Positions 173-19,839 of a stretch of 24,801 nt of DNA are shown piece after piece (within the stretch, counting starts at the first letter, position 1; each line of letters begins with the position of its first letter). The notes beneath the pieces are model-generated. The model saw nothing but the letters and a program-made list of their open reading frames with translations, did not search any database and was not told where the DNA came from. The position numbers and the translations under genes were made by a program. The stretch is from IMG/VR virus record IMGVR_UViG_3300025769_000082. One strand, given 5' to 3'. Source of the DNA: an uncultured virus (IMG/VR IMGVR_UViG_3300025769_000082) (Duplodnaviria > Heunggongvirae > Uroviricota > Caudoviricetes).

Positions 173-386
173 CCAAATGCCTCCCGCCGGGTTAGGGTCG
201 GTCATGTCTCCCGGGCGCGACTACGGGTTGGGTCTGGACGCGGATGAATTTGAGGTGATTTTAGTGCTTTTTGTGTCTTGGCGCAATAGTTTGTGTCGCG
301 AGACACAGTCTTCGTGTCTCGGGGGGTGATTTTTTAAGTGAGGGGTGGTGGATGCGCTGTAAAAACTCTTTGGGGTTTTTCCAGCT

Positions 387-493
387 ACAGCTTTTTACAG
401 TTTGTTGAAAAGTTTGAAATCCAGAAATTTTCTCGGACAGCTTTTCACAGTTTGTTGAAAAGTTTGAAATCCAGAAATTTTCTCGGACAGCTT
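387..493. repeat. 50-bp AT-rich tandem duplication (2 copies plus a partial third)
   Basis: ACAGCTTTT(T/C)ACAGTTTGTTGAAAAGTTTGAAATCCAGAAATTTTCTCGG at 387-436 and 437-486 with one mismatch; ACAGCTT again at 487-493. Confidence 0.95.
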
Positions 494-499
494 ACGCGC

Positions 500-775
500 G
501 ACGCCGCGCTCCCCCCGGGCTCCCCCCGGGGGGTCGGGTCGGCGGCGGGCCGTGTCTCGGCCCCGTGTCTCGGCGTCTCGGTCTCGGCGTCTCGGTCTCG
601 GCCCCGTCTCGCCGCGCCGGGCTCGACGCCGCGCGTCGTCGCCGGGCTCGACGTCGTCGGTCGGCGGGTCGGGCCCGGGTCTCGCCCCGGGATAGGGCGG
701 GCTCTCGCCCGGGTCTCGGCGGGTCTCGGGCCGGGTCGCGGCACTAATCGCGGCGCGTCTCGGTCTCGGCGTCTC
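500..775. repeat. GC-rich low-complexity tract of GTCTCGG/CGTC units
   Basis: Many GTCTCG(G) units, e.g. 554-610 and 710-775; no credible coding frame. Confidence 0.75.
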
Positions 776-998
776 AATCTCGACCGGCGAGGGCGTCTAA
801 TTCGGCGTCGATCTCGGCGAGACTCATATCGCCCGCCGCCCGGGTGCCGGGTCGGGTCGGCGCGTCTTGGTGCTTGCCCAATAGGCCCGCGATCTCGGCG
901 AGCGTTCGCGCCGCTTGGACCCGCGCGGCGGCGGCGGCGGTCTTATCGTTTATGACGTCGCGCAAAGCGGCGAGGATAATATCACTATCTGTTTGCAT
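774..998 (-). CDS. Terminase small subunit-like protein (74 aa)
   Basis: ARVQAARTLAEIAG and DMSLAEIDAEL resemble motifs of phage small-terminase-like proteins; overlaps the end of the upstream HGGxSTG-like gene. Confidence 0.5.
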   Translation of the reverse strand: MQTDSDIILAALRDVINDKTAAAAARVQAARTLAEIAGLLGKHQDAPTRPGTRAAGDMSLAEIDAELDALAGRD

Positions 999-1413
999 TA
1001 TAACGCCCCGTTAGGTCGGCCCACGCCCGACCGTCGCCCGCTTGGGCGGCGACATAGGCGAGAACGACGGCGGCCCTCTCGGCGAGAGACCGGGCCGCCC
1101 GATATACCGGCAAGCGTAAGACGTCGGGCGGCGCGTCTTGGATTGCGTCGAGCGCCGCTTGTCGGCGGGCGTGTCGGGCTCGACGCTCGGGCGTCGGTTT
1201 ATGGTCGGGATTGTTTCGCAAGGCCGCGCGGTCGGCCCCGGTCAAATGATACCGGCAATGTTCGAGGCCCCACGCCGCCCGGTTCCGACATGGTCGGTCG
1301 TTTTGTCGCGACCAACCGGCGCACGTCTTGGCGGTCGCGAACGGCGACCCAAAACCGGCGGCGGCCCGCTTGGTTTTGAACGTCTCGGATTGCGTCGGGT
1401 TTTTGTTTGCCAT
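985..1413 (-). CDS. HGGxSTG-like Cys/His zinc-finger protein (142 aa)
   Basis: CAGWSRQNDRPCRNRAAWGLEHCRYH gives C-x10-C-x10-C-x2-H, like the HGGxSTG domain often found beside packaging genes; the HGG tail is not conserved. Confidence 0.6.
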   Translation of the reverse strand: MANKNPTQSETFKTKRAAAGFGSPFATAKTCAGWSRQNDRPCRNRAAWGLEHCRYHLTGADRAALRNNPDHKPTPERRARHARRQAALDAIQDAPPDVLRLPVYRAARSLAERAAVVLAYVAAQAGDGRAWADLTGRYNANR

Positions 1414-1439
1414 GCCCGGGATGATACCCGACGCCGCGC

Positions 1440-1470
1440 TTGCGTTCTATATCACACATTGTTATATATT
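1440..1470 (+). promoter_or_regulatory. Sigma70-like promoter of the AAA/vWA operon, overlapped by an operator-like dyad
   Basis: TTGCGT (1440-1445), 17 nt, TATATA with upstream TG; an AT-rich patch in the divergent gap. ATCAC-ACATT-GTTAT at 1451-1465. Confidence 0.55.
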
Positions 1471-1537
1471 GACGTGTCGGGCGACGCCGCCCGACGGCAA
1501 ACACTCGAACCGACTAAACACAAGGAACCAACAAACC

Positions 1538-3070
1538 ATGACAAACACATACACAAGCGAAGGCCGCACGGCTTTAAAAGCGGCGATCACAAACAGCCCG
1601 GCATGGGGCGACTATAAAGATGCGCACGGCGTCACGTCGGGCGGCCTTACGGTCGCCGGTCTCGAAAAGGCCGCCGCCGCCCTCGGTATCGACGCCCGGC
1701 AATATGCGAAAGACGTTTTCGCCCCGGCAACGCCGCCGGTCGCCGCGCCGGTCGCCGCCCCGGTCGAGGTCGAGGCCGCCCCGGTCGTCGAGGTCGAGGC
1801 CGCCCCGGTCGAGACCCAAGACGGCGAGACCGCCGACGCAATCGCCCGCGATATTTTGAGCGGTTCAATCGCCGACATGGCCGCCCGGGTCGAGACCTTG
1901 GCCGCCCGGGCCCTCGACGCCGAGACCGCCGCCGCCGAGACGTCGGCACGTCTCGCCGCCGCAATGGCGGCCCCGGGCTCGAACGTCGTCGCAATGCCGA
2001 CGCCCGCCGCGCCGGTCGCAAAGGCCCCGACGGTCGCCCCGGCCCGGGTCGTCGAGACCAAAACCCGGAAAGACGTTTTCGGCCTTACGCTCGACGGGTC
2101 TGATTTCCCGGTTTCAATATGGAACGCCGCCGACGCCCCGGCCCGCGATAAAAAGATGGCATGGGATAAAACAGTCTTATCCTATGCCCTCGCCGTTTGG
2201 CGGCGCGGGAAAAATATCTGGTTGCACGGCCCGCGCGGCGTCGGCAAGACGACGTTTTGCGAACAGGTCGCCGCTTGGACCGGTCGCCCGCACGTTCGCA
2301 TTGGTTTTCACGCCGATATGGAACCAGTGCATCTTTTCGGTATGGTCGTCCCCGAACCGACCGGCGGCGTCGTTTGGCAAGACGGCGTTCTGGTCGCCGC
2401 CATGCGCCGCCCGGGCACGATAATTTTGCTCGACGAACCGACCCTTGCGCCGGTCGGCATGTTACACGCCCTTCAAACGGTTCTGGACACTCGGCGCGTT
2501 ACGCTCGAAACCGGCGAGGTCGTCGAGGCCGCCGAGGGCGTCGTCTTTGCAATCGCCGACAATACCGCCGGGCATGGCGACGATACCGGCGAGTATCACG
2601 GGACCGGCCCTATGAACGCCGCTTTCCTCGACCGCGCCGCCGTCTCAATTCCGGTCGGTTATTTGCCCAAGGCCAAAGAGGTCGCGCTTGTCGAGGCCCG
2701 CACGGGTTTAAACCGGGCGACCGCCGACAAGCTGGTCACGTTCGCGGGCCTGACCCGGCAAAAAGGCAACGATTGCGCCGGGCTCTCGCCCCGTCGCGTT
2801 TTTGCTTGGGCCGAACTTGTCGCCGACGGTTTCCCAAGCGCCGAAGCTTTCAATATGGCGGTCGTCAATTTGGCCGACCCGGCGCACGTCGAGATATACC
2901 GGCAACTTGAGATCGGCGACGGCGTCGGCGGGCTCGATCACGCCGTTATTGACGCCCTCGCCCGGGGCGAGGCTTTACCGTCGCCCGACGGCGCGGCCCC
3001 GCAATCGACCGACGACGTCGAGACCCGCTTGGGCTTTGACGCCCTCGATCTCGACAACGTGAACGCATAA
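1538..3070 (+). CDS. MoxR/CbbQ/CobS-like AAA+ ATPase (510 aa)
   Basis: Start reassigned to ATG 1538 (AAGGAA RBS at 1522-1527). Walker A GPRGVGKT, Walker B IILLDE, ADNT sensor, MNAAFLDR arginine-finger region, LSPR sensor 2; long Ala/Pro-rich N-terminal extension. Confidence 0.9.
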   Translation: MTNTYTSEGRTALKAAITNSPAWGDYKDAHGVTSGGLTVAGLEKAAAALGIDARQYAKDVFAPATPPVAAPVAAPVEVEAAPVVEVEAAPVETQDGETADAIARDILSGSIADMAARVETLAARALDAETAAAETSARLAAAMAAPGSNVVAMPTPAAPVAKAPTVAPARVVETKTRKDVFGLTLDGSDFPVSIWNAADAPARDKKMAWDKTVLSYALAVWRRGKNIWLHGPRGVGKTTFCEQVAAWTGRPHVRIGFHADMEPVHLFGMVVPEPTGGVVWQDGVLVAAMRRPGTIILLDEPTLAPVGMLHALQTVLDTRRVTLETGEVVEAAEGVVFAIADNTAGHGDDTGEYHGTGPMNAAFLDRAAVSIPVGYLPKAKEVALVEARTGLNRATADKLVTFAGLTRQKGNDCAGLSPRRVFAWAELVADGFPSAEAFNMAVVNLADPAHVEIYRQLEIGDGVGGLDHAVIDALARGEALPSPDGAAPQSTDDVETRLGFDALDLDNVNA

Positions 3071-3083
3071 GGGGGGCGAGACC

Positions 3084-4979
3084 ATGAAGGTTAAAAACAC
3101 CGATTTCCTCGCCGCCGTCGGCCCGACCGCCCAAAAATTTTTGGCGCGGGCGGGCGTCAAGGCAAAGGTCAAAGTGCTTTGCTCGGGCTCGACCGCTTGG
3201 ACCCGTTTTTACGGGTCCGGGCGCGACGGCTCGACCATGCGCGTCGATTTAAACATGCCCGCTTTGCCGGTCGCCGGGTCTATGACCCGCGACCAAGCCG
3301 ACATGTTCACGGCGTATATTCTGCACGAAATTTCGCACAACCTTTGGACCGACACCGAGGCATGGGACGAGGCCGTGCGTGCGGTCGAGTATCGCAAACA
3401 AACGGCTTTCCATCGTATTATAAACGCCCTCGAAGACGTGCGAATTGAACGTGTTTCAATTCGCGAAAAGGTCGCCGGTCGGTTCCGCGATTGTCTCGAA
3501 CGTTTGATCGACCAGTTACACGCCGACGCCGTGCGCGGCGGGTTTAACCCGAACGGCCCGGGCGGGGCCCTTTGGACCCTTTGCGTTTTGGGTCGGGTCG
3601 ATTTGTGCGGTTATAACGTGCCCGCCGCCGCCGGGCTCGCCGGGGCTCTCGGCCCGGCGCAATCGGCAATCGTCCGCGATACGCTCGACCGGCTCGACCG
3701 GGCGGGCTCGACCGCCGACGTCGTCGCAATCGCTCGCGATTTGCTCGACCTTTTCGACGCCGACCAGCAAGGCCCCGAACCGCAACCCGGGCCCGGCGAA
3801 AAGGGCGACGACCAGGGCGACGACCAGGGCGACCAGGGCGACCAGGGCGACCAGGGCGACGACCAGGGCGACCAGGGCGACCAGGGCGACCAGGGCGACC
3901 AGGGCGACCAGGGCGACGACCAGGGCGACGACCAGGGCGACGACCAGGGCGACCAGGGCGACGACCAGGGCGACCAGGGCGACGACCAGGGCGACGACCA
4001 GGGCGACGACCAGGGCGACGACCAGGGCGACCAGGGCGACCAGGGCGACAAGCCCGGCGACGGCGCGGGCAAGGGCGGCGACGATTGGACCGGCGGCGGG
4101 CTCGACAATTTGCAAGACGCCGAACCGACCGCCGACGGCGTCGCCGCCGACCTTGGCATTGACGCCGACGGCGTTGACGTCTGGAACGGCATTTTGACCC
4201 GGTCGCCGGTCTCTCGCGAGATACAGAAAACTTTTCGAGGTTCCGACATGGCCGCCGGGGCCGACCGGGCCAAGGCCGACATTGCCGTGCCGTCGAAACT
4301 GAAAACCCAAGTCCGGGCGATTGTCCGGGCCCCGGGCCGAACCGACAGGCGGCGCTGGCAAGACGCCGGGCGTCTCGACGTTCGCGCAATCCCGGCAATG
4401 CGGGCGGGCCGAAAAAACGTCTTTCGGACCCGGCGCAAACAAGACGCCGTCAATAGCGTCGTTTCGCTCATACTCGACCTTTCGCCGAGCATGGGGGGCC
4501 GTCGTATCCACGCCGCTTGCGGTCTCGCCGTTCACTTGGGCGAGGCTTTAAAGGCCGCCGGGGTGCCGTTCGAGATCATGGGTTTTCGCGGCGGCGAAAC
4601 CGTTTACGCCGTCAAAACCTTGGCCGAGGCTTGGAACCGGGCGGCGGTCGAGAATATCGGCAAGGCCGAATATTCTCTCGGCGGCGGAACGAATATCACG
4701 TCGTCGGTCGTCGCCGGGGCCTTGCGCTTGCGCGACGTCGCGAACGTGAACCGGCGGATCATGCTAGTCTTGACCGACGGCGGGTGCGGGTGCGGCCCTT
4801 GGGCCTTGCGGGCGGCGGTCGATTATGCCGAGAGCGTCGGCGTCGAGGTCGCCGGGCTCGGCATCGGCGGCGGGTCCGACGTGCGGGCGTTCAAGGTCGC
4901 CCAAAAAATCGACGACGTGCGCGACCTTGGGGCCGCCGGTCTCGACATTCTCGCCCGGCAATTGGGGGCCGCCCGGTGA
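3084..4979 (+). CDS. CobT-like protein: HExxH metallopeptidase-like N-domain, acidic repeat linker, C-terminal vWA domain (631 aa)
   Basis: HEISH plus downstream NALEDVRIE; GRLD motif; MIDAS DLSPS...GGT...LTDG. Confidence 0.88.
   Translation: MKVKNTDFLAAVGPTAQKFLARAGVKAKVKVLCSGSTAWTRFYGSGRDGSTMRVDLNMPALPVAGSMTRDQADMFTAYILHEISHNLWTDTEAWDEAVRAVEYRKQTAFHRIINALEDVRIERVSIREKVAGRFRDCLERLIDQLHADAVRGGFNPNGPGGALWTLCVLGRVDLCGYNVPAAAGLAGALGPAQSAIVRDTLDRLDRAGSTADVVAIARDLLDLFDADQQGPEPQPGPGEKGDDQGDDQGDQGDQGDQGDDQGDQGDQGDQGDQGDQGDDQGDDQGDDQGDQGDDQGDQGDDQGDDQGDDQGDDQGDQGDQGDKPGDGAGKGGDDWTGGGLDNLQDAEPTADGVAADLGIDADGVDVWNGILTRSPVSREIQKTFRGSDMAAGADRAKADIAVPSKLKTQVRAIVRAPGRTDRRRWQDAGRLDVRAIPAMRAGRKNVFRTRRKQDAVNSVVSLILDLSPSMGGRRIHAACGLAVHLGEALKAAGVPFEIMGFRGGETVYAVKTLAEAWNRAAVENIGKAEYSLGGGTNITSSVVAGALRLRDVANVNRRIMLVLTDGGCGCGPWALRAAVDYAESVGVEVAGLGIGGGSDVRAFKVAQKIDDVRDLGAAGLDILARQLGAAR
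3804..4049 (+). repeat. Coding minisatellite: 12 x GGCGACCAG (GDQ) and 11 x GGCGACGACCAG (GDDQ)
   Basis: Counted from the translation: 82 codons, with no synonymous variation between units. Confidence 0.95.
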
Positions 4980-5080
4980 TTATACCGGCGGCCCTTGGGG
5001 CCCTCGCCGTTTTGGTCGGGGCCCTATGCGCCGAGGTCGGGCACGTCGCCCGGCGACGGCGTCGAGGTCGGAAAAAATAA
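4976..5080 (+). CDS. Small single-pass membrane peptide (34 aa)
   Basis: GTG start overlaps the vWA stop (GTGA). MIIPAALGALAVLVGALCAEVGHVARRRRRGRKK; ends 11 nt before the terminator. Confidence 0.6.
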   Translation: MIIPAALGALAVLVGALCAEVGHVARRRRRGRKK

Positions 5081-5091
5081 GACGCCCGCCG

Positions 5092-5128
5092 AGGGCCCCG
5101 GGTCGAGAGACCCGGGGCCCTTTTTTTT
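5092..5128 (+). terminator. Intrinsic terminator closing the AAA/vWA operon
   Basis: AGGGCCCCGGGTC-GAGA-GACCCGGGGCCCT, a perfect stem with a GNRA loop, running into T8. Confidence 0.92.
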
Positions 5129-5307
5129 ACCCGCACGGGGCCGAGAGGGCCCCGGGGCGGGTCGAGGCCCCGGCGGGCCCTTGTCGGCCCTTGGCGGGCC
5201 ATTTTTGGGCGTCTCTCGCCCCGCTCGACGTCGCGCGGCGGGCCCCGGGGCGGCGAGATCGGCGAGAGACGCCGCCGAGGGCGGGCGGCCCTATCCCGGC
5301 CCCGCCG

Positions 5308-5661
5308 TCGGCGGCGGGCCCGGGCACGTCGGCCCCGGGGCGGCGACCGGGTCGAGGTCGGCGACCGGGTCGAGGTCGGCGACCGGGTCGAGGTCGGCGA
5401 CCGGGTCGAGGTCGGCGACCGGGTCGAGGTCGAGATCGGCGGCGGGCCCGGGCACGTCGGCCCCGGGGCGGCGACCGGGTCGAGATCGGCGACCGGGTCG
5501 AGCGCCGCCGGGTCGAGATCGGCGACCGGGTCGAGCGCCGCCGGGTCGAGATCGGCGACCGGGTCGAGGTCGAGCGCCGCCGGGTCGAGGTCGAGCGCCG
5601 CCGGGTCGAGGTCGAGATCGGCGACCGGGTCGAGGTCGAGCGCCGCCGGGTCGAGATCGAG
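5308..5661. repeat. Non-coding GC-rich compound repeat array
   Basis: 5 tandem CGGCGACCGGGTCGAGGT (5341-5430); 49-bp direct repeat at 5308-5356 and 5436-5484; further CGGCGACCGGGTCGAG and CGCCGCCGGGTCGAG units to ~5661. Confidence 0.92.
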
Positions 5662-5737
5662 AAAAAAAACCGGGGCCGGGTCGTAAGATTTTTGACGCCG
5701 GAACGTCGCGCGGCGGTTTTAGTTTTAACGCCCGGGG

Positions 5738-5782
5738 CGGCGTCTCGCCGTCTCGGTCTCGGGCCGAGACGGCGAGACGCCG
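5738..5782. repeat. Perfect 19-bp inverted repeat (hairpin/cruciform)
   Basis: CGGCGTCTCGCCGTCTCGG, 7-nt loop, CCGAGACGGCGAGACGCCG. Confidence 0.9.
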
Positions 5783-5859
5783 TCTTGAGACACGCGCGGC
5801 CGCCGCGCGGGCCCGGGCGGGAGCGAGGCCTGCCCCTCCGCCGCCGCGCCTGATTTCAA

Positions 5860-5943
5860 AGATTGTACGAGGTACGAAAATTCGGAGATTGTACGCGGTA
5901 CGAAAATTCCAAAATTTCCGAGATTGTACGAGGTACGAAAATT
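5860..5943. repeat. Three 23-bp direct repeats
   Basis: AGATTGTACG(A/C)GGTACGAAAATT at 5860-5882, 5886-5908 and 5921-5943. Confidence 0.95.
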
Positions 5944-5973
5944 ATCACACTTCGTTAGATAACACATAGTTAT
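5944..5973. promoter_or_regulatory. Two abutting operator-like dyads
   Basis: ATCAC-ACTTC-GTTAG (5944-5958) and the perfect ATAAC-ACATA-GTTAT (5959-5973). Confidence 0.6.
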
Positions 5974-6053
5974 ACTCGCCGCCTAACGTCCCCCCGGGAG
6001 GCACCCCACCCCTCTATGGGGGGTGCCACCGGGGACGTCAAGGCGTTTTGACC

Positions 6054-6207
6054 AACCATGTCGAACCATGTAGCTTTAAAATCAATGACTTAGCCCTTAT
6101 CCATGTAACCATGTCGGAACCATGTCGAAAATGAACCATGTCGTAATGATTTCAATGACTTAACCCTTAACCTTGTAACCATGTAGCAACCATGTCGTGA
6201 ACCATGT
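6054..6207. repeat. Iteron-like AACCATGT array with IHF-consensus sites; candidate replication origin
   Basis: 8 perfect and 2 one-mismatch AACCATGT copies, with 70-bp higher-order periodicity. AATCAATGACTTA (6080-6092) matches WATCAAN4TTR, with a near match at 6150-6162. Lies just downstream of the primase-helicase gene. Confidence 0.7.
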
Positions 6208-6420
6208 CGAGAAAAAATACGTTTTGTTATGCTACATCTTGTAAATCCGCCCTAAAAACAACACCCAGCACATCACAAACTGTTAAAAACTGTAGCACCA
6301 CCCACCCCCCAAAAACCCCATCTGAGACAAGAGAAAACCCCGCATCCGAGACATGGGGTTTCCCCAACCTAACAACAAGTTATGTATTACCCTGTGAATT
6401 ACGGGGAAAACCCGACCCCA

Positions 6421-8754
6421 TCAATCGAAAGGATTTGGCATCTGCGCCCGGGAAACAACCACAACACCCTGACCCGAGCGCCCCGTCGGTGTCTTCCAGC
6501 CCAGATCGCCGGTATCCAATTCGCCCCTCTCGCGCATCCGCTCCATGACCAATTCGATCTCGTCCAAACGATAGACCTGTGCCCGGTGAACCCGAGCCTT
6601 ACACCACGCCGGGAGCCACTTGTCGTGACCGGCTTTCTTGGAGAACGACAGCGCGTGTTTCTTGTCTTCGGCCAATATGATCCCGTCTTCGATAATGCCT
6701 TCGATCTCGGTCTCGGCTTCTGTCTTGCCTGTGATCGGGTCGATTTCCCCGGCAGTGACTTGGCGCACTACCTTGAAAGCCCCCTTGTCCCATTCCAAGA
6801 TTTTGTCTGTCTCTGAGCCTGACGCCGAATAGTTGGACTTGACCCGAGACAAGCGCCTCAAGTTGTTTCGGCCCCCTAAAACCCCTGACGGATCGTTGTC
6901 GTCCATCGAAGAAAGATACCACCTACTCCTGACAGAGTTGTTCCAAGCAGTTGAACCTGAGAAACCTTGCCCGGAGGACTTACCGGCTTGAGACGGGTGG
7001 GCTAGGAACAAGACGGAGCCATTTATGTCTTGGGCGAGACCCAAGAGCGCCCGTTGCACAAACTGTCTGACTTCCAGCCGAGACACTTCGTTGCCGCCGA
7101 ATACATCAGCCAGCGTGTCCAAAACAATTACATCCGCTTTCATCGCAACAGCCGCGTCTCGGAGGTTTACCCAGAAATCCGTGAGAGTTCCGATGCCGGA
7201 GCCGTCAAACGTCATCAATAAGTTATCTTCGCCTTCGCGGCACATATAGGCCAGCGTGTCTTTGTCTGGCCCGTCCCATGTATTCATGTCCAAGACATAG
7301 TGGTTGTTAATGTCATCCTGACGCCGCCAGATTTCATCCGCGTCGTCTTCACACAGCACCGCCAGTACCCGGGACTTCTGAGTTTTCTCGCCGAGCCAAT
7401 CGCCACCAACAGAGAGACAGGTCGCCAACATTTGCGCGACCAGTGTCTTACCCAAGCCCCCGTCTCCATACAGAGACGTGACCTTGCCTTTGGGCAGCCA
7501 ATCTTCCACCACCCACTCACGCTGCGGAGGGGTCTTACCTGACCATTCGCCGGGGCGGGTGATAACCAGCCCCCCGGTGGACTTGTGGACACGCTCTGTC
7601 TCGGCGGCGTCTTCAATGTCTTGTATGACACTTTCGGGCACCCCACAGAGAACATCCCACTTGTCTACCAACCTGTCATATTGTAGCGGGTCCAAAACCT
7701 GTAAATGCGCCAACCAGCCCCGATGCGCCTCAATGGTTTCCCTGTCTTTCCATGTCTGCGCGATCTCAAAGGGCCAGCGGTTATTCTCGTCAAACTCATG
7801 CACCATCTGAGCCCACTCGACAGACTTCTTTGAGCCGGGCAATTTGGCGTCAATGTGGTCGATCAGGTCGCCGTAGTGGCGTTGCTCACAGTGCCCGTGG
7901 TGGCACCTAAACCCGAACGGAGACAGATACGCCGCGCCGCTATCAGCCGCGCCGGTATGCTCATGCACCCAAGGGCACTCGATGTCGTAGGTGTCGGGTT
8001 TGATCTTGCCTTTGAAAATCCCGACCTGAGACAGTAGGGGCACAATCGGGTCTTTGTCTTCGTCGATCCCGGAACCGTACTTAGACGTCTTGGCTGAGAC
8101 ATTCGTCACGTCGATCCCAAAGGGCCGGGCCAAATCTTCCAGCCGGTGTTTCAAATCCGGTTCCCATTTCGTGAGTTTACACTTGAAGGGTTTGCCGTAT
8201 TTCTTTTTGGTGTTTGACCCGACAGGCAGCCGAACATATCGGGTGACGCCTTTCATGCCGGGGTCTTTCATGTCATCAGCGATCCCAGCAGCAACCAGCC
8301 CATTTAAGAGCGCGTCTACCCGTTCTTGCCGTGTCTCCGGTGTCTCAAGGATGAAGCCCCATTGCTCGTTACCCGACGACGTCTCCAAGATATAACTCGG
8401 CTCTGGTAGGTTTTTGATATTCTCCGCCGGGACTTTGTCGTGAACGTCATCAATGGTTATCACATACGTTGCGTCGTGGAGGTCTTTGCGGCGGCGGGCT
8501 TTGCCGTCTTCCGCCAGTTCAAACAGGGAGATCACAAAATATGTGTTCCGATCCCCGAGACAGTACGGAAGTTGTGTCTTCGCGGGGCCGCCGCCCCAGT
8601 AGTGCCTGAGACCCAGATTATCCAGATCATACGGGTCTTCTTTGAAACTCGTAACGTGGGCCCGTTCCCATTCGTTACCGAAGATGCCTTTGAGGAAGTC
8701 TTCGTTCGTGAGATCGACCCGCTTCGCCATTGTTACCACGTTTTCACCGCCCAT
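6421..8754 (-). CDS. Primase-helicase (RepB-like primase domain, Zn module, AAA_25/RepA-type helicase)
   Basis: TIDDV and ETSSGNEQW primase motifs; CPWVHEH...CHHGHC; Walker A GDGGLGKT; Walker B IVLDT; LAHPS. Start uncertain (8754, 8730 or 8796). Confidence 0.88.
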   Translation of the reverse strand: MGGENVVTMAKRVDLTNEDFLKGIFGNEWERAHVTSFKEDPYDLDNLGLRHYWGGGPAKTQLPYCLGDRNTYFVISLFELAEDGKARRRKDLHDATYVITIDDVHDKVPAENIKNLPEPSYILETSSGNEQWGFILETPETRQERVDALLNGLVAAGIADDMKDPGMKGVTRYVRLPVGSNTKKKYGKPFKCKLTKWEPDLKHRLEDLARPFGIDVTNVSAKTSKYGSGIDEDKDPIVPLLSQVGIFKGKIKPDTYDIECPWVHEHTGAADSGAAYLSPFGFRCHHGHCEQRHYGDLIDHIDAKLPGSKKSVEWAQMVHEFDENNRWPFEIAQTWKDRETIEAHRGWLAHLQVLDPLQYDRLVDKWDVLCGVPESVIQDIEDAAETERVHKSTGGLVITRPGEWSGKTPPQREWVVEDWLPKGKVTSLYGDGGLGKTLVAQMLATCLSVGGDWLGEKTQKSRVLAVLCEDDADEIWRRQDDINNHYVLDMNTWDGPDKDTLAYMCREGEDNLLMTFDGSGIGTLTDFWVNLRDAAVAMKADVIVLDTLADVFGGNEVSRLEVRQFVQRALLGLAQDINGSVLFLAHPSQAGKSSGQGFSGSTAWNNSVRSRWYLSSMDDNDPSGVLGGRNNLRRLSRVKSNYSASGSETDKILEWDKGAFKVVRQVTAGEIDPITGKTEAETEIEGIIEDGIILAEDKKHALSFSKKAGHDKWLPAWCKARVHRAQVYRLDEIELVMERMRERGELDTGDLGWKTPTGRSGQGVVVVSRAQMPNPFD

Positions 8755-8755
8755 T

Positions 8756-8827
8756 TCACGCCCCCAAAAATGATAAGTTTTGAGGGTTGTCGCCAACAGT
8801 CGGTGAGGGTATATTTAGGCCGGGCAT
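8756..8827 (-). CDS. 23-aa leader ORF upstream of the primase-helicase
   Basis: AAAGGAACC RBS precedes ATG 8827; MPGLNIPSPTVGDNPQNLSFLGA; stop lies 1 nt before ATG 8754. Confidence 0.45.
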   Translation of the reverse strand: MPGLNIPSPTVGDNPQNLSFLGA

Positions 8828-8897
8828 TGGAGGTTCCTTTCATTGTCTTTCGAGTGTTTTGAGGCCCGGGGAGTGGTTCCCCCGGGCCTCTTGCCGT

Positions 8898-9110
8898 TTA
8901 AGCGAAGGGTTTTAAGAGTAATGTCTTTAAGTGTTTGGCGCAATAGCCGACAGGGCCGACAAAGACGTAGAGCCTTCGCCCCAGTTCCCGCAGAAGTCTG
9001 CCAATAGGGCCCACAGAAGGTGTGCCCCCGAGAAATTTAATTTCCTCGACCAAACAATAATCCAGCGATCCGTCGTCGTAGCGGGTCCAGATAGCGACAG
9101 GTTTTTTCAT
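8898..9110 (-). CDS. Hypothetical protein (70 aa)
   Basis: ATG 9110 overlaps the upstream stop (TGATG); fills the operon gap. Confidence 0.5.
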   Translation of the reverse strand: MKKPVAIWTRYDDGSLDYCLVEEIKFLGGTPSVGPIGRLLRELGRRLYVFVGPVGYCAKHLKTLLLKPFA

Positions 9111-9328
9111 CACTTGTGCCCCACAGAATAACTCTCGGCGACCATTGATCCGAAAATCCCGGTGTCTTTGCATGATCCGCAGATGCGTTGCCCGATCCAT
9201 TCACTAAAGAAACTCCGGCGGCACTTGAGACATATCCGTGTCTTGGCTTGTCCCGAATAGTCCCTCTCGGGTTTGGGCTTCTTCTTGTCTTCGTATGGGT
9301 CTCGGGGTGTCTTAAATACATTTCTCAT
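9110..9328 (-). CDS. Small CxxC...CxxC zinc-finger protein
   Basis: CLKC-x13-CGSC; starts 3 nt after the polymerase stop. Confidence 0.75.
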   Translation of the reverse strand: MRNVFKTPRDPYEDKKKPKPERDYSGQAKTRICLKCRRSFFSEWIGQRICGSCKDTGIFGSMVAESYSVGHK

Positions 9329-9331
9329 GTG

Positions 9332-11275
9332 TTATTTCCTATATCTGGTCCCGACCCAGCCTTCGCAGTCGGTTGGGAGACCGTCTGCCCAAGCCGGGTT
9401 GATACGGATGATGTCTTTGATGTTTTTTAGGTGGTCGATGTCTGCGTCTGTCTCGACGATCAGTTCGTCATGCACAGTCAGCAAAATCCTGTACCCGGCT
9501 TTGTCGAGACGCAGCAGCGCGGCGATCATCAGGTCTCGGGCGATAGCCTGAGTGATGTTCTCGACGAGTTTCCCGCCCCATGTGTCTTGGCGTTCCCATT
9601 TCCGGGTGTACTGGTTGACCCCCATATAAGTAACTCTGGGCCGGTTCTTCTCGTCGTGTTCGATCTGAGCCTCTCGGTAAACCAGATACCGCCCCGATGG
9701 CAGCCGACAGACCAGATTGCTCCCCATCATGGCGTAATCGACCTTGCCGACGTTGTAGATTTTGGGCCGGAGAGCGTTGCGTTTGCTTTCGATGGCCTTG
9801 ATGGCAGCTTCTTGGCAGTCGTACCAAAACCCCACGATGTAGGGGTTGGCTTTACGCCAGCCCGAGACCACTTCGGCGGCAAACTCTGTCTCCAAGGTGA
9901 GACCGTACCCCAGCGCCGTCTCGACGAATTTGTTCGCTCCCATGCCGTAGCCGAGACCGAGACGACAGACTTTGCCCAAGGCGCGGTTGTCCGATCCGAT
10001 CTGAGTGGCGTCGTAGACATACACGTCTTCACCGTTGGCGAAGACATTCAAGATGTCTTGCTGGTCAGCTTCCCACGCCAACACTCTCGCTTCGATCTGC
10101 GAGAAATCGACCACAGTTAGCGACATATTGTTAGGCGCGGCCAGACACCCCCTGAGACACGAAGACACGACAGACATAACCGGCCCGAACGTGAGTTCGA
10201 TCATGTCGGCGTCCACCCCTCTGAGCATCCAGCTAATCGCGCGGTCCACATCTTTGATCTCGCCGCGCGGCATGTTCTGGGGTTGGATCAGTCTGCCCGC
10301 GTGTCTCCCGGTCCTAAAAGCGCCGTAGTATTGAAGCATCCCACGGACCCGAGACCCCTCGCCGACACAGTTGAGCATGGCGGTCAGTTTGGCAGTTGAA
10401 GACTTGGCCGCGATCTGGCGCAGTTCTACAGCGCGTCTCGCCGCCCCGGTCAAATGTGGCGACTTTAAGGCTTTCGCCATGTTTGCCTTATCAAGAGAGT
10501 TCACCCCCGGATAACTCTTGCGAACAAAATCCAAGAGTTTGCCCACCTGAGAACAGGTCGTGACTTCGCCATCAGTGATTTGAGCCATCCGGGCGTCGAG
10601 TTTCTTCTTAGACGCGTCGGCGTACCGAGACATGGCGGTCACTAGGTCTTGGTCTAGGAACACCCCCCGGTCGTTGAGGCGTTGGTCTACCTGATAGACT
10701 TTTACTTCCTCGGGCGGCAGCGGTGGGATTTGATAACAAATACCCCGCTCCGCTTCGACGTCTTGGGCACAGTAATCTTGGAGACGGGCGTATCGCTGCG
10801 GATCGTCCAAGTGCCACCATTCATGTGTGCCGTCTTTGTTTGTCTTACGGGGCCGAGACATGCGGAGCATTAACGAGTGCCCCTCTTTGTCTTTTGGGGG
10901 CCCGCCCAGTGCGTCTGATGCCATGTCCAACGACAGCGGCAGCCCCCAATAGGCAGCTTGCGCCATCGTGCAGACGAATTGCTCGGGTTTGATGTCGGGC
11001 CAGTTGTGTTTCGGGCCCAAGACATATTTCCAGATCAACCGCTCAAACTGCGCGTTCCAAGCGGCGACTTTGCCGCCAGCCTGGACATGCGCGATGATCT
11101 CGTCGGGGACCGGCATGGACGGGAGCCAGCCACGGACTTTGCCCGTCTCGCCAAAGGCACAGAAAGCCATGATGCAATCCGTGTCTTTGTCTTGAGCGTA
11201 CCGGTAGGCTCCCGTCTTGTTGAGGTCGAGAACGGCGACCGTCTCGACATCCAAGTGCAACAGTGTCTCCGTCAT
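9332..11275 (-). CDS. Family A DNA polymerase (APSE-like) with 3'-5' exonuclease domain
   Basis: LDVET, WNAQFE and YCAQDV exonuclease motifs; motif A DFSQIEAR; motif B RALGKVCRLGLGYG; motif C VHDE. Start reassigned to MTETLL. Confidence 0.95.
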   Translation of the reverse strand: MTETLLHLDVETVAVLDLNKTGAYRYAQDKDTDCIMAFCAFGETGKVRGWLPSMPVPDEIIAHVQAGGKVAAWNAQFERLIWKYVLGPKHNWPDIKPEQFVCTMAQAAYWGLPLSLDMASDALGGPPKDKEGHSLMLRMSRPRKTNKDGTHEWWHLDDPQRYARLQDYCAQDVEAERGICYQIPPLPPEEVKVYQVDQRLNDRGVFLDQDLVTAMSRYADASKKKLDARMAQITDGEVTTCSQVGKLLDFVRKSYPGVNSLDKANMAKALKSPHLTGAARRAVELRQIAAKSSTAKLTAMLNCVGEGSRVRGMLQYYGAFRTGRHAGRLIQPQNMPRGEIKDVDRAISWMLRGVDADMIELTFGPVMSVVSSCLRGCLAAPNNMSLTVVDFSQIEARVLAWEADQQDILNVFANGEDVYVYDATQIGSDNRALGKVCRLGLGYGMGANKFVETALGYGLTLETEFAAEVVSGWRKANPYIVGFWYDCQEAAIKAIESKRNALRPKIYNVGKVDYAMMGSNLVCRLPSGRYLVYREAQIEHDEKNRPRVTYMGVNQYTRKWERQDTWGGKLVENITQAIARDLMIAALLRLDKAGYRILLTVHDELIVETDADIDHLKNIKDIIRINPAWADGLPTDCEGWVGTRYRK

Positions 11276-11279
11276 GGGA

Positions 11280-11504
11280 CTACAGTGGGAGTTCGAGTTG
11301 CTCGGCGGGCGTCTCGGCACCCTCTTTCTTGTCTTCCAAGACAGTCGTCACAAAATTCAGTTCCAACATGAGAAACTGGGCGTAATCCCGTAACGTCGGG
11401 GTTATGTTGGCAGTGGGAAGATCGTTGATGTGGGCCAACCGGGCCTTGAGCCAGCGAGACAAGAGTTCGAGTTCTTCGATGGAAAATTCGTTTTCGTCAG
11501 ACAT
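11280..11504 (-). CDS. Hypothetical protein (74 aa)
   Basis: AAAGGAAACC RBS; in operon; ends in QLELPL, which resembles a beta-clamp-binding motif. Confidence 0.7.
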   Translation of the reverse strand: MSDENEFSIEELELLSRWLKARLAHINDLPTANITPTLRDYAQFLMLELNFVTTVLEDKKEGAETPAEQLELPL

Positions 11505-11591
11505 TTTGGTTTCCTTTGTTTTCGAGTGTTTGCCGGTATTCCCGACACGCCATACAAAAAATATATGACGTGCCGGGAAAGTTCCAGAGAC

Positions 11592-12164
11592 TTAGCTATC
11601 GAACGGATCGGCGCTATCGGTTTCGATTTCTGCGTCCGGGTTGGGATCAGCCTCGTCGAGAGCGTCGAAGTCGCTAGACGCAGCGCGTTTGCCGTCGAGA
11701 CGCGGCATGTCTTTCTTCACGATCTGGATGTTTTGCAGACCGAACGAGACACCACGGTTGCCCGAGTTGTCGTAGGCGAAGGGACGCACAGTTGCGCGAA
11801 CCAGTTGCCCCGGGAAGACGTCGTCAGCGGCAAGCACGTCTTGGAGACGCCCGTCAACGATACCCGGCTTCTGTTTCGACCACGGATTGATGTAGATCAT
11901 CCCGTCTTCATAACCGGCGTAGTCTTTCTCGCCAGCGTCACGGAACGGAGAGCGCAAGCCCGACGGGACTTTGTCGCCCCACTTTTCTTTGACGCAAGCG
12001 TTCACAGCGGCTTTGAGGGCCTTGTACTCGGGAGAGTTCTGCGCCTCTTTGTCGAACAGGATGTTCATCGAAAAGCGCGGTTCTGCCCCCGGGGACGGAG
12101 CCCGAGCGGTGAACAGGTGGACGAAAGAGGACATGCCAACAGGGGTGCGAAGTGTGTCAGCCAT
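11592..12164 (-). CDS. Single-stranded DNA-binding protein (DUF2815/gp2.5-like)
   Basis: SFVHLF, SPFRDAGEK, NRGVSFGLQNIQ, acidic C-terminal tail; canonical position between nuclease and PolA. Confidence 0.9.
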   Translation of the reverse strand: MADTLRTPVGMSSFVHLFTARAPSPGAEPRFSMNILFDKEAQNSPEYKALKAAVNACVKEKWGDKVPSGLRSPFRDAGEKDYAGYEDGMIYINPWSKQKPGIVDGRLQDVLAADDVFPGQLVRATVRPFAYDNSGNRGVSFGLQNIQIVKKDMPRLDGKRAASSDFDALDEADPNPDAEIETDSADPFDS

Positions 12165-12203
12165 TTTCTACGTTTCCTTTCTACGTTTGGCTAGAAGTTG
12201 GTC

Positions 12204-13412
12204 TTAATCGACCGGGTCAAAATCCGATGCGGGCCCAGCCGCAGCGGCTTGTCTCGGGTCCAGTTCTCGGACGAGAGTGGTCCCGCTACTGTCTTTTGAG
12301 ATATGATCCGTCAGTGTCTCGAAAGCCTCTTTGTCTTTGAGGAGTTTTTCGATCTGGGCCGGAGACTTGAGTTTCACAGAGACCGCTTTGTCTTCCGGTA
12401 GCCCCATGTCTTCCAGTTTTCCCAACACTAACTTTTCATTATCCCACTTTCGGATGCCGCGCTTCTGCACCAGTTTCCAGCCCGGGACTTTACCGCCCCG
12501 GTCAATTCGGCTGGATGCTTCGCCGCGAACACCGTCTATGAACGCCCGAATGATCTCCGTCTTGTCGAGGATAGCCCCGAGTTCGGCGTCAGATAAATCG
12601 ACCGGTTGAGGCGGCAGCGCGTCAAACTCGACCCGTGCCGTCTCTTGCGCGACCTGTCTCAAGGCCGGGCACCGCCCCCGAGCCGGGCACCAGCGGCACC
12701 CGTCTCCGACGACGGCTTTGGGGTTGCCCGAGAAACAAGCCTCGGCCCCCGGTTTCAGTGTCTCATGTCCCCAAGCAAGCAAATCCAAGGTGGAAATACT
12801 GGCCTTGCGGATCGGACCCAATGGGTGATCCGCTCGGGGTTGGCAGACATAAACGTCCACCCAGAGGGGTCGGGCGTCTCCGTCTTTGATCGACAGTAAG
12901 ACACCCAGAGCGTAATAGAGAAGTTGAGGGTTGAGTTTCCCCAGCTTCTCCACGTCAACAGCGACCCCCTTCCCATATTTGAAATCCACAATGCTGAGAC
13001 GGCGATCTTTCGTGCCCCAAGCTGCGAAATCAGAAGTGCCGAACATGTCGGCGGGTTGGGAGCCGTCGGCCCACAGGTCGTTGACGTCTACCTGTTTCTC
13101 GACTTCACAGAATTTGGCGGCTTTACCAATCTCGCGGCAAAGTTCCAGATAAACGAAGGCGGCGTCTGCCATTTCCTCGTCTACTTCGATGGGGCCGAGT
13201 TCCGACTGAAATTCATCCCCGATGTACGAATACGGGTCATCGTCCTGGATGAAACACATTTCAGTCAGCGCGTGGGCGGCTTGGCCTTCCGCAGCATATG
13301 TTGACGTTGCGGATTGCTGCCCCGCCGACAGCAAGACACTGGCGGGACACTCTAGCCACCTTTCGGCACTAGAGGCCCCCAGTATGGAGTGGGCGGGGCG
13401 ATCCTGAGACAT
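12204..13412 (-). CDS. DUF2800 Cas4-like PD-(D/E)XK exonuclease
   Basis: HSILGASSAERWLECP, GTSD, IVDFKYGKG, QLLYYA, CRWCPARGRC (four Cys in total); TAATG overlap sets the start at 13412. Confidence 0.9.
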   Translation of the reverse strand: MSQDRPAHSILGASSAERWLECPASVLLSAGQQSATSTYAAEGQAAHALTEMCFIQDDDPYSYIGDEFQSELGPIEVDEEMADAAFVYLELCREIGKAAKFCEVEKQVDVNDLWADGSQPADMFGTSDFAAWGTKDRRLSIVDFKYGKGVAVDVEKLGKLNPQLLYYALGVLLSIKDGDARPLWVDVYVCQPRADHPLGPIRKASISTLDLLAWGHETLKPGAEACFSGNPKAVVGDGCRWCPARGRCPALRQVAQETARVEFDALPPQPVDLSDAELGAILDKTEIIRAFIDGVRGEASSRIDRGGKVPGWKLVQKRGIRKWDNEKLVLGKLEDMGLPEDKAVSVKLKSPAQIEKLLKDKEAFETLTDHISKDSSGTTLVRELDPRQAAAAGPASDFDPVD

Positions 13413-13927
13413 TACGCCACCCCACAATCCACAGCGATCTTACGCGCCGCTTTCAACAAATCAGGCCCGTTCGACGGGTCGATGTCGGCGAAACGCTGGA
13501 CGTCGTACTTTTTGACCAGCGCCATGACGGCAGCTTTCCCGTCGTCTTGCCCGTAGCACTCGGAAAGAAGTTCCAGCGCAGCATCGAAATCGGCTTTTGG
13601 GCTATCGCCGTCTTCCGTGTCTCCGGTGTCTTCGTCTTCCGGTTCCTCTGTCTCGGGTTCTTCCTCGACTTCCGGCTCTGGCTCGGGTTCTTCTTTCTTC
13701 GCCTTCTTCGGCGCGGCTTTTTTCTTCTCCGGTTTCGTTTCCGGTTCCGCTTTGTTGTCCACGATCACACACTCCATGCCCTCGGGCAGTTGCGCGTTGA
13801 TGGCGGTCAGCATTGCGTCCACAGACACGGGGCCCGCCTCTGGCGAAGACATAGCAGTTGCGACTTCGGCCATTTTAGCCAACAGGTCGGTAGCGTTGTT
13901 CGCAACAATCTTAACTTCCACAGTCAT
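13412..13927 (-). CDS. Conserved phage replication-module protein with an acidic/Pro/Lys linker
   Basis: AAAGGAACC RBS; C-terminal ALVKKYDVQRFADI helical module typical of genes preceding DUF2800. Confidence 0.75.
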   Translation of the reverse strand: MTVEVKIVANNATDLLAKMAEVATAMSSPEAGPVSVDAMLTAINAQLPEGMECVIVDNKAEPETKPEKKKAAPKKAKKEEPEPEPEVEEEPETEEPEDEDTGDTEDGDSPKADFDAALELLSECYGQDDGKAAVMALVKKYDVQRFADIDPSNGPDLLKAARKIAVDCGVA

Positions 13928-13943
13928 TCCATCTGGTTCCTTT

Positions 13944-15329
13944 CTATCCAAACAGTTCGGTGAGTTCCCGGGTCTTGCGAACCAAGGCCCGGTTGATGAT
14001 GTCGTCGATTGAGTTGGGTAGGGTCAGAAACCGAGCGACGACGCCCCGGGTCTGGGTAAATCGGTGGGCCCGAGACAGGGCTTGATAGTTGTTTGACGGC
14101 ACCCAATCGGCCTCGAAAAACGCGACGTCTGATGCAGCGGTCAGCGTGAGCGCAGTTCCCGCCGCCGCAATCTGTCCAACAATTAACTTGCAATTCGGGT
14201 CTTTCATAAATACTTGTTCCGCCCGATCCCTGTCTTTAGCAGTGTCTCGCCCGTCGATCTTAACCGGGTTGAACGCCGCCATGTGTTCGACTATCTTGTC
14301 GATCACTTCATGGTGGATGGCGAACACGATGTATTTGTTTCCCGACGCCATCTCCGTCTTTAACCATTCGAGACAAACGGGCAGTTTTAAAAGGCCAGTA
14401 TGACGGCGATATGTGGCTAATTCGGTCGCATGTGATTTCATAAAATCAACGAGGTCGTTCTCGGACATGTTCTCGGCAGCGTCGGCCAAGTGTTTCGCGT
14501 CTGAGTGCGACGACAGCGCCTTATTCATGTCTTCGCCGTCCATTTCCTTGAGAGACACCGGCACAGACGTAACCGTCACGGGCGGCAAGTCTTTCAGAAC
14601 ATCTTTCTTGAGACGACGCATATAAAACCCGGCCATCCGGCGACGCAGTTCTTTCATGTCTTTTGAACCGACGACGTTGACGCCCCAGTTGGTCACTTCG
14701 ACCCGGCAATAGTTCCCGATGTATTCTTGTTCGCCCATTGGCTTGCCCGAGACACCCGGGATTGCTTGCGGGTACAGCGCCCGCAAATGGGTCCAGAGTT
14801 CCCCGGCGTGGTTGGGGGCGGGCGTACCCGTCAATATCCAAGTGCGTTTGGCTTTCGCGGCGAGGGATTTCCCCTTTAAGTCACAGCGGGTGCCGTACAC
14901 AGCCTTGGTACGCTTCGCGCCTTTGGATTTCAGAAAGTGCGCCTCGTCAACGATCAGGACGTCCCAATCGTGATTAAACAGCGTGTCGAGGGTGCCCGCA
15001 TCTGTCAGCAAATCGTGAGATACAATCACGACAGCTTTGTTCGCGATTTTGATCGGCGCGGGGAGCCCTGTCTTGAGTTTCGAGGTAACTACGAATGTAG
15101 TAGCGTTCGCATCGAACCAGCGCCGGGTCTCCCGCTCCCAGTTGTACCGGGCGACCGCAGGGCAAACGACGAGGATAGATTTCGCGTCTACGTCTTTCGC
15201 AGCGGTCAGTGATTGTGGGGTCTTCCCGAGGCCGCAGTCATCAAATAAACCGGCGCGGTCGTTCGAGGCTAAAAAAGATGCCCCTTCGACTTGATACGGT
15301 CTGAGGGGCGGAGTTACAGGGAGGTTCAT
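13944..15329 (-). CDS. SNF2-family (HARP-like) helicase
   Basis: LRPYQ, DDCGLGKT, DEAH, LTGTP, QALSRAHR. Confidence 0.93.
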   Translation of the reverse strand: MNLPVTPPLRPYQVEGASFLASNDRAGLFDDCGLGKTPQSLTAAKDVDAKSILVVCPAVARYNWERETRRWFDANATTFVVTSKLKTGLPAPIKIANKAVVIVSHDLLTDAGTLDTLFNHDWDVLIVDEAHFLKSKGAKRTKAVYGTRCDLKGKSLAAKAKRTWILTGTPAPNHAGELWTHLRALYPQAIPGVSGKPMGEQEYIGNYCRVEVTNWGVNVVGSKDMKELRRRMAGFYMRRLKKDVLKDLPPVTVTSVPVSLKEMDGEDMNKALSSHSDAKHLADAAENMSENDLVDFMKSHATELATYRRHTGLLKLPVCLEWLKTEMASGNKYIVFAIHHEVIDKIVEHMAAFNPVKIDGRDTAKDRDRAEQVFMKDPNCKLIVGQIAAAGTALTLTAASDVAFFEADWVPSNNYQALSRAHRFTQTRGVVARFLTLPNSIDDIINRALVRKTRELTELFG

Positions 15330-15393
15330 CAAGAGAGTTCCGGTTAGCGTTTCTACAGTTCTACGAGAGCGCCGATGAAGGGCGTCTGATCGT

Positions 15394-15917: not shown

Positions 15918-15918
15918 C

Positions 15919-17064: not shown

Positions 17065-17079
17065 TCGTGTCTTTCCTGT

Positions 17080-19838: not shown

Positions 19839-19839
19839 C

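Follow-up and report, generated by a model that had tools for sequence, protein, structure and literature searches.

A sharply bounded cobS-cobT-like island with its own sequence dialect in an uncultured tailed phage: a possible vertically inherited module beside a presumed chromosome end

Clusters of cobS- and cobT-like genes are widespread in tailed phages, and in the passage of Liu et al. (2021, PMC8651126) that describes them their products are thought to act with the host protein CobN. Here we analyse such a gene pair in a stretch of 24,801 nucleotides from an uncultured virus of the class Caudoviricetes (IMG/VR IMGVR_UViG_3300025769_000082; below, the window), where it lies within an island of unusual composition at positions 494-5850. 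The nearest cultured relative is Microcystis phage Mae-Yong1326-1 (OP028995.1), whose terminase large subunit (TerL) is 56% and whose cobS domain is 46% identical; the part of its published description that concerns the genome ends gives fixed termini determined by PhageTerm and a 366-bp direct terminal repeat (PMC9503304). The reading that we favour, with about even confidence, sees in the island a self-contained accessory module, inherited vertically in a temperate tailed phage, with a maintained sequence dialect of its own and situated beside a probable chromosome end. It would then be neither a terminal repeat nor a packaging region.

Beyond the window, the phage can be followed in a public record of a virus almost identical to it (G001; 40,947 bp, with 100% identity to positions 846-6000 of the window), whose far part was joined to the window by a script to give a 41,792-base reconstruction. 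In 300-bp segments, GC content is 0.56-0.82 within 451-5850 and 0.44-0.66 outside; it amounts to 68.3% for the island (494-5850) and 56.0% for positions 5851-24801, with 56-57% as the general level outside the island. A second-order Markov likelihood-ratio scan, trained on 1001-3700 plus 4101-5000 versus 7001-41792, has its cumulative minimum at position 527 and peaks at 5850. Positive scores are also obtained in the flanks that were not used for training (501-1000 and 5001-5800), and in none of the approximately 140 500-bp segments from 6501 to the end of the reconstruction. The first six 1-kb segments (five entirely within the island, the first including 493 flanking bases) are distinct from the remaining 35 in CpG odds (1.40-1.54 vs 0.92-1.35), CA/TG (0.24-0.71 vs 0.83-1.20) and AG/CT (0.47-0.73 vs 0.68-1.01). 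The island comprises 1563 distinct 6-mers, as compared with 2294-2602 in equal-sized segments of the rest; relative to a dinucleotide-preserving simulation the count is 0.75 for the island, 0.78 if the tandem arrays are left out, and 0.92 for the rest. GGAG occurs once in the island (5820) and CTCC three times (509, 520 and 5836), every copy at the edges, and the remaining 35.9 kb contains 150 and 101 copies, respectively.

Much of this had been stated in an earlier note, made by reading the letters of the sequence, and we found it to be accurate: the composition switches abruptly near 494 and 5850, the vocabulary is restricted, the interior is free of GGAG and CTCC, AT-rich arrays lie directly outside both edges (387-493 and 5860-5943), and the stretch 3084-3520 has a single CTG (3321) and a single CAG (3513). 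The GC content of about 70% given in the note agrees with the high overall value but not with a uniform one, as the conserved coding parts have 58-66% and values of 72-82% are limited to repeats and low-complexity parts. The claim that Gln is mostly encoded by CAA does not hold, with 27 CAG and 19 CAA codons in cobS and cobT; 24 of the 31 CAG trinucleotides of the island fall within the acidic repeat of cobT (3765-4041).

The dialect concerns mainly the use of dinucleotides, beyond GC content as such, and is a neighbour-dependent DNA rule more than a set of motifs: after C comes G or C and seldom A or T, G seldom follows A or T, and A and T cluster. This is seen in all three codon phases and in genes on both strands. 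For the island as a whole the dinucleotide odds are 1.47 for CpG, 1.76 for AA/TT and about 0.57 for CA/TG and AG/CT. The signature is alike in the small leftward genes, in both halves of cobS and in both conserved domains of cobT (CG 1.48-1.64, CA/TG 0.57-0.70, AG/CT 0.45-0.54), and it is symmetric on the sense strand (CA 0.69 and TG 0.65, AG 0.41 and CT 0.59). At codon junctions, the observed-to-expected ratios are 1.32 for C-G, 0.42 for A-G, 0.32 for T-G, 0.40 for C-T and 0.57 for C-A, with 2.76 for A-A and 3.70 for T-T, and in 17 backbone genes all 16 ratios fall between 0.71 and 1.30. The word depletion remains after correction for GC, amino acids and codon usage: when synonymous codons were shuffled within cobS and cobT, with protein and codon usage preserved, the observed and expected counts were 35 vs 95 for GGA/TCC, 0 vs 16.6 for GGAG/CTCC, 41 vs 77 for CAG/CTG, 44 vs 70 for CAC/GTG and 16 vs 32 for ACT/AGT, with the same outcome for the conserved domains by themselves. 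The backbone exhibits only a mild depletion of GGA/TCC (636 vs 768 expected). The earlier note had named a lack of depletion after such correction as a refutation of its reading, and the counts show the opposite. Avoidance of CRISPR protospacer-adjacent motifs and a UV signature, with their contexts as generally known, were considered as sources of the pattern and dropped, as GAG/CTC and TC/GA are enriched, not depleted.

A pattern of this kind within genes might reflect translation, the four genes being tuned in codon or codon-pair use and avoiding GGAG for fast early or lysogenic expression, with the strand symmetry as a by-product of GNC codons. Such codons do dominate in cobS and cobT (GCC, GGC, GAC and GTC make up 66%, 68%, 85% and 69% of their families, and the GC content of third codon positions is 0.78 vs 0.67), the sense strand is devoid of GGAG, and the strong terminator and conserved leader suggest a tightly controlled unit. 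However, the capsid and terminase genes, which are expected to be well expressed, lack the pattern (as does the capsid gene region), and the antisense words CTCC and TCC are depleted like the sense words. CTG is the usual optimal Leu codon in GC-rich bacteria, yet it is avoided here, with 6 of the 84 Leu codons of cobS and cobT as opposed to 27% in the 17 backbone genes. We therefore regard a translational origin as improbable.

A search of a set of 5.8 billion proteins returned 35 matches, among them seven relatives that are 57-73% identical and, as the eighth, the window's own protein. Matches above 40% identity are located on contigs of no more than 48.6 kb, some of them phage-sized, including several at 40-69% identity on contigs of 46-49 kb; just two matches are on larger contigs (164 and 664 kb), and these are 29-38% identical. 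Neither the cobS alignment nor TerL detected a locus when scanned against 185,579 species genomes. Likewise, 8 kb of sequence compared at the nucleotide level with 50,697 phage records gave no match, and neither did a single-protein cobS scan of viral contigs; a cobT scan of viral contigs hit low-complexity repeats only and was dropped. In the collected loci, three assemblies (L056, L057 and L058) represent the same phage as the window and differ in repeat copy numbers, and three related lineages share its gene order: L053 (the same phage as L118/G010), L054/L055 (L121-type) and L059. An equivalent island, which the earlier note had suggested looking for, is present in these relatives. Their cassettes have CG 1.58-1.68, CA 0.66-0.73 and AG 0.46-0.55 at 52-61% GC and the same codon-junction bias, and their backbones, with 46-52% GC, exhibit it weakly. 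Most of the depleted words recur as well. Taking the four lineages together, the window included, GGAG/CTCC is found 2 times vs about 37 expected and GCAG/CTGC 10 times vs about 65. The synonymous divergence (dS) of cobS between lineages is 1.07-2.0 or saturated, with 57-78% of synonymous sites differing; the corresponding cobT values, based on mis-registered coordinates, were disregarded. TerL and cobS provide the same branching order, in which L053 and the L055-type are closest and the window lies outside; thus backbone and cassette have travelled together, with equal residence time. The dialect has been kept across at least about one substitution per synonymous site, which argues that it is maintained and does not mark a recent import. 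Residence time in the host (amelioration) was rejected as an explanation, as TerL co-diverges with cobS and yet lacks the dialect.

Backbone and island also share the avoidance of restriction-type palindromes. In the 17 backbone genes GANTC is found once vs 57 times expected and CCWGG 8 times vs 66, and eight GC-rich 6-bp palindromes are present in 0-2 copies vs 5-16 expected for each. The conserved coding parts of the island contain none of these palindromes, with an expectation below 3 for four of the eight 6-mers. The same avoidance in both compartments implies a common history, and together with the co-divergence of cobS and TerL it agrees with the earlier statement that the island is not simply foreign. 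GANTC sites are of the CcrM type and have an alphaproteobacterial link, and their avoidance may hint at an alphaproteobacterial host.

These data bear on plain mosaicism, according to which the module retains the composition of a donor with a genome-wide signature. The sharp edges coincide with gene-module boundaries, as is typical of phage mosaic joints, 17 of the 24 phage or metagenome loci examined, near-duplicates among them, have a cobS region that exceeds its surroundings by at least 4 GC points, a lineage with a 70% identical replication module (L002/L003) has another gene next to the primase, and the L053 and L055 backbones possess a weaker form of the bias, as would suit such a donor. 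On the other hand, the searches in proteins and species genomes described above yielded no close cellular homologue, the cassette co-diverges with TerL and has the palindrome avoidance of the backbone, and the signature persists at near-saturated synonymous sites, where it tracks the GC content of each lineage at a roughly constant offset. Distant cobS-bearing phages are devoid of the CA/TG depletion. We consider a donor that has merely left its composition behind to be quite unlikely.

The position of the module in the chromosome can be approached through Mae-Yong1326-1, whose record shows the 366-bp repeat at either end. This phage has the same gene order and strands as the window, and its ORF1 (open reading frame 1), the homologue of ORF74 in the island, overlaps the terminal repeat. 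The record begins 113 bp beyond ORF1; thus the cobS-cobT module constitutes the first 4.3 kb of the chromosome. The mapped end has a C4G6 run at a distance of 31 nt. The window has a C6G6 run about 25-30 nt inward of the left composition edge; the 20-nt element around this run recurs in 4 of 124 loci (L054, L055, L056 and L121), and L053 has it with one base changed. On account of this synteny and of the conserved boundary element, the left edge (about 494) is probably a chromosome end or a concatemer junction, as judged from sequence, and the GC-rich non-coding edge next to it (494-773) is a candidate terminus or terminase-recognition region. The island does not carry packaging-type genes, contrary to what had been proposed: its recognisable genes are cobS-like and cobT-like, and TerL is located about 30 kb away, in the part of G001 that encodes lysis genes, terminase, portal and capsid. 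In phages λ, T7, T5 and SPP1, packaging finishes with the end remote from the head and terminase genes, and this end is the first to leave. By analogy, the module, being opposite the terminase-proximal late genes, would lead on entry, and a terminal, possibly first-entering segment is plausible.

A fixed end at 5850, considered in the earlier note, finds no support in Mae-Yong1326-1, in which the module runs on into small ORFs and a helicase gene, and neither does a long terminal repeat, the repeat of that phage being only 366 bp long. A T5-type repeat of 5.4 kb present at both ends and collapsed by the assembly would indeed place the collapsed copy between unique ends with sharp edges, as found here, and several assemblies break at or within the island. 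Yet these breaks coincide with tandem arrays of 75-82% GC, Pfam and PHROG scans of the island ORFs detected no homologues of T5 pre-early genes, and genome size does not discriminate, with the near-identical 40.9-kb record, rated 85% complete, leading to about 48 kb. In view of the short repeat in Mae-Yong1326-1, we regard such an arrangement as very improbable. The occurrence of cobS near the ends of two IMG/VR contigs labelled complete and near the start of the CRP-810 record was not used, as these starts look arbitrary.

A more elaborate proposal, building on the earlier note, is that the island is leading, first-injected DNA, exposed before any phage protein and purged of short, mostly non-palindromic words recognised by host defences; the right-hand arrays might then pause entry like the T5 injection stop. 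In T5, according to the part of Davison's account (10.1101/866236) that deals with first-step transfer, EcoRI cuts targets in the DNA transferred first and CRISPR-Cas acts on them, the remainder of the genome is protected, and the first-transfer segment is bounded by repeat-rich untranslated DNA. What stands of the proposal is the corrected word depletion, which recurs in three related lineages and whose symmetry on both strands indicates action at the DNA level, and the location of the module, which adjoins the mapped end in Mae-Yong1326-1 and has its operon transcribed away from the presumed end. What is weakened is the link to defence. The backbone, as strongly cleared of restriction-type palindromes, cannot be regarded as sheltered. 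What is seen is a dinucleotide rule in all codon phases and not a set of discrete sites, and the acidic repeat of cobT (3795-4050) contains 23 copies of CCAGG, a word avoided by the rest of the genome, although L053 spells this repeat with CAA and without CCAGG. Moreover, the window contains no copy of the DnaA-box consensus TTWTNCACA (0 matches), in contrast to the T5 stop signal with its ordered DnaA boxes, the demonstrably terminal module of Mae-Yong1326-1 has no depletion, and the choice of the end that enters first derives from analogy. All in all, a segment purged of defence targets appears unlikely.

Several observations also weigh against the interpretation that we prefer, i.e. an end-adjacent module whose dialect is maintained by a pressure of its own. 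In Mae-Yong1326-1 the module is terminal, but its 72% GC is uniform and the dialect is absent; therefore terminal position alone does not impose it. Contig stops inside the island (G001 at 846; L056-L058 near 5250-5300; L121, L053 and G010 in the arrays) were rejected as indicators of termini, for they coincide with extreme GC content and tandem arrays. GGA/TCC is not depleted in L059 (38 vs 39 expected). Given the weaker form of the junction bias in the L053 and L055 backbones, the pressure may be genome-wide and just stronger here. Amino-acid content accounts for part of the GC excess, with Ala, Gly, Asp and Val making up 46% of the residues of cobS and cobT and GC at first codon positions reaching 0.72 vs 0.60. 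Heterogeneity of GC content within genes could inflate the depletion measured by shuffling, although the conserved domains alone agree. Finally, AG/CT is not strongly depleted in the non-coding arrays (0.73-0.92), and these add little support for the rule in non-coding DNA, because they consist of few units in many copies.

Taking these points into account, we propose the following for the maintained module. From the left, it would consist of a GC-rich heptamer array with the C-run/G-run element, two leftward genes, a divergent control region, the rightward cobS-cobT operon, a tiny membrane-type ORF, a strong terminator and a second GC-rich array, followed by the putative replication origin and replication genes. 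A module-specific pressure that is still acting would maintain the dialect, since the lineages keep the rule while their overall GC content drifts. If the left edge is the chromosome end, the module would lie opposite the terminase-proximal late genes and, by analogy with the phages named above, would be packaged last and ejected first. As to the cause of the dialect, selection at the DNA level tied to the first DNA to enter and be expressed is a tentative possibility, and a local mutational or other cause is an equally tentative one; a donor or host signature is clearly less probable, and translational selection lower still. An extension of the first possibility, for which we have little confidence, is that the clade keeps its end-adjacent kilobases in a CpG-rich grammar almost without C-then-A/T and A/T-then-G steps, and hence poor on both strands in GGAG, GCAG, CAG/CTG and GGA/TCC. 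This DNA would enter first and would have to survive or be read ahead of any phage protein, with the lineage-specific inner arrays acting as a pause or hand-over in a T5-like staged entry of an unrelated, temperate phage type and cobS- and cobT-like proteins as its first products.

The features of the module and of its surroundings are listed in Table 1.

Table 1. Features of the compositional island, its flanks and the adjacent replication region (window coordinates)
Feature	Position	Strand	Remarks
Inverted repeat with GTCTCG/CGAGAC word	295..325	.	Outside the island, upstream of a leftward late tail-fibre-like gene
AT-rich tandem repeat, 50 bp x 2.1	387..493	.	Directly outside left edge
Sole difference between window and L056 across 650 aligned bases	487..494	.	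7-8 bases, exactly at the composition edge
GC-rich (81%) non-coding edge	494..773	.	C-run/G-run element ~514-546, then heptamer GTCTCGG arrays 554-769
ORF74, small conserved protein	774..998	-	49% identical over 63 aa (E 1e-9) to ORF1 of Mae-Yong1326-1
ORF142, small protein with Cys/His cluster	985..1413	-	57% identical to L053:9473-9880
Divergent control region, 124 bp	1414..1537	.	AT-rich TATATCAC...TTGTTATAT block; GC hairpin ahead of cobS
cobS-like MoxR-class AAA+ ATPase, low-complexity acidic N-terminal half	1538..3070	+	Start set from family alignment
cobT-like VWA protein	3084..4979	+	Pfam CobT_C 3.4e-11; phrog_17276; solved CobT 2.9e-9
Acidic D/Q/G tandem repeat in cobT	3795-4050	+	Copy number differs between same-phage assemblies L056, L057, L058
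34-aa hydrophobic-then-basic small ORF	4976..5080	+	Overlaps cobT stop; counterpart in L123 read by eye
Intrinsic-terminator-like hairpin, 14 pairs (11 G-C), then T run	5091..5122	+	Ends the cobS-cobT unit
GC-rich (76%) non-coding tandem arrays, periods 18, 21, 33, 36	5130..5850	.	No frame open throughout
AT-rich repeat, ~three 26-35 bp units	5851..5943 (units 5860-5943)	.	Directly outside right edge
Eight same-strand copies of AACCATGT in two ~65-bp blocks	6054..6207	+	8 vs 0.48 expected
Primase/helicase gene	6421-8796	-	AAA_25 4.9e-31; primase/helicase PHROGs

Analysis of the individual parts reveals that the architecture of the module is conserved among relatives and its repeat units are not. 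The cobS-like protein matches Pfam AAA_5 (1.4e-15) and CbbQ_C (4.3e-8) and phrog_249 (1.1e-49), and it aligns with the solved CobS structure over 273 residues (4e-24). In the cobT-like protein a VWA_2 match (3.8e-4) remains under the Pfam cut-off. The two genes are adjacent and co-oriented here as well as in L053, G010 and Mae-Yong1326-1. ORF74, which has a homologue also in L053, and ORF142 have no Pfam or PHROG match, and in a protein atlas ORF142 falls into unnamed viral clusters only. The control region has a mean column identity of 74% over four lineages (window, L053:9870-10010, L055 and L059), compared with 57-78% of differing synonymous sites in cobS; it contains no match in a scan for the sigma-70 consensus, and an Rfam scan gave tRNA only, with no RNA family in the island or in this region. 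It is probably a regulated promoter or leader. L123 possesses an equivalent hairpin after cobT and its own, different array in place of that at 5130-5850. Six-frame translation of 4980-5850 exhibits open frames, but these are repeat-driven, shift in phase and lack starts, so the region was treated as non-coding.

GC-rich tandem arrays lie just within both edges (504-782 and 5308-5674). In L053 an AT-rich repeat of its own (a different array, 33 bp x 2.5) lies at the left edge and is accompanied by the C/G-run element and by GC-rich arrays that likewise contain the GAGAC word; control region, small ORF and terminator are present too, and the right-hand array is a different one. The inverted repeat outside the left edge has a counterpart at L053:8690-8720. 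The leftward late genes begin outside this edge with a tail-fibre-like gene, and the neighbouring gene in L053 matches tail-fibre PHROGs.

The rest of the window comprises structural genes, a block with integrase and repressor, and the replication module. Within the portion of the genome covered here, this block and the cobS-cobT operon are the units that oppose the direction of the other genes. The repeated copies of AACCATGT resemble iterons and lie beside the primase/helicase gene; they therefore probably mark a replication origin, as far as can be told from sequence. In the L002/L003 lineage the replication genes are about 70% identical to those of the window, another convergent gene (L002:12329-12592) follows the primase, and the iterons and the AT-rich repeat are lacking, which points to modular exchange at this joint; both contigs end 200-260 bp further on. 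A complete tRNA-Thr (anticodon GGT) at 20615-20689 (+) closely follows the integrase block on its downstream side. It could indicate where the phage attaches or could be a tRNA of the phage itself, and it reads ACC, which the island prefers for Thr. At 16464-16862 (-), in the early region, we found the N-terminal domain of dATP/dGTP diphosphohydrolases (PF18909, 3.6e-26); among the ORFs scanned there is no further sign of a modified-base pathway. A separate observation concerns the host of Mae-Yong1326-1. The genome of this phage has 72% GC, and yet it was obtained on a culture of Microcystis, a low-GC host; its true host may be an associated heterotroph.

Islands of deviant composition in phage genomes are usually read as recent imports, and here the dialect is kept in four lineages; narrow word searches of the literature returned no description of such a local selective or mutational force in phage genomes. 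If the dialect is tied to DNA entry, sequence alone could flag the leading ends and early-exposed DNA of uncultured phages, and the widespread, unexplained viral cobS-cobT pair would rank with the genes that act earliest. Should the dialect instead be a mutational artefact or a host signature, caution is needed for horizontal-transfer calls based on composition.

Among known systems, the viral cobS-cobT clusters described in the passage of PMC8651126 have the same adjacent, co-oriented genes for a MoxR-class AAA+ ATPase and a partner with a VWA domain at its C terminus. The island adds a conserved grammar, flanking arrays and two small genes, which that passage does not mention; its cobS product has a long acidic N-terminal extension, and a role in cobalt chelation with CobN is putative here. 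The T5 first-step-transfer segment, in the part of the T5 account cited above, occupies a similar share of its genome (about 8%, vs about 12% of an estimated 46 kb here), and both segments are bounded by repeat-rich untranslated DNA, with T5 exposing only its segment to nucleases. Unlike T5, the phage of the window is temperate, gives no sign of duplication of the segment and has neither DnaA boxes nor pre-early homologues, and two-step entry would be pure speculation in its case.

The left end of Mae-Yong1326-1 has an ORF74-like gene, a second small leftward gene, cobS, cobT and a convergent helicase gene in the same arrangement as here, with a short phage-specific word repeated around the module and a C/G-run by the boundary. 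It differs in its uniform 72% GC, without an island or a dialect, and in that its termini were mapped experimentally. In phages of the T7 type the direct terminal repeats are short and have short arrays of repeats at their flanks. The short terminal repeat of Mae-Yong1326-1 and the heptamer arrays beside the presumed end of the window are reminiscent of this arrangement, in a different phage type with a different terminase. Morons, as defined by Hendrix and colleagues, are independently transcribed accessory units of temperate phages, usually sporadic and recently acquired. The island resembles them in having a clear terminator and a putative control region of its own, in lying on the opposite strand and in a composition unlike that of its neighbours. 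It differs from them in being conserved and co-diverging within its clade (the module is present in the L053, L055 and L059-type phages and in Mae-Yong1326-1, and the L002/L003 lineage has another gene by the primase) and in that its composition is maintained.

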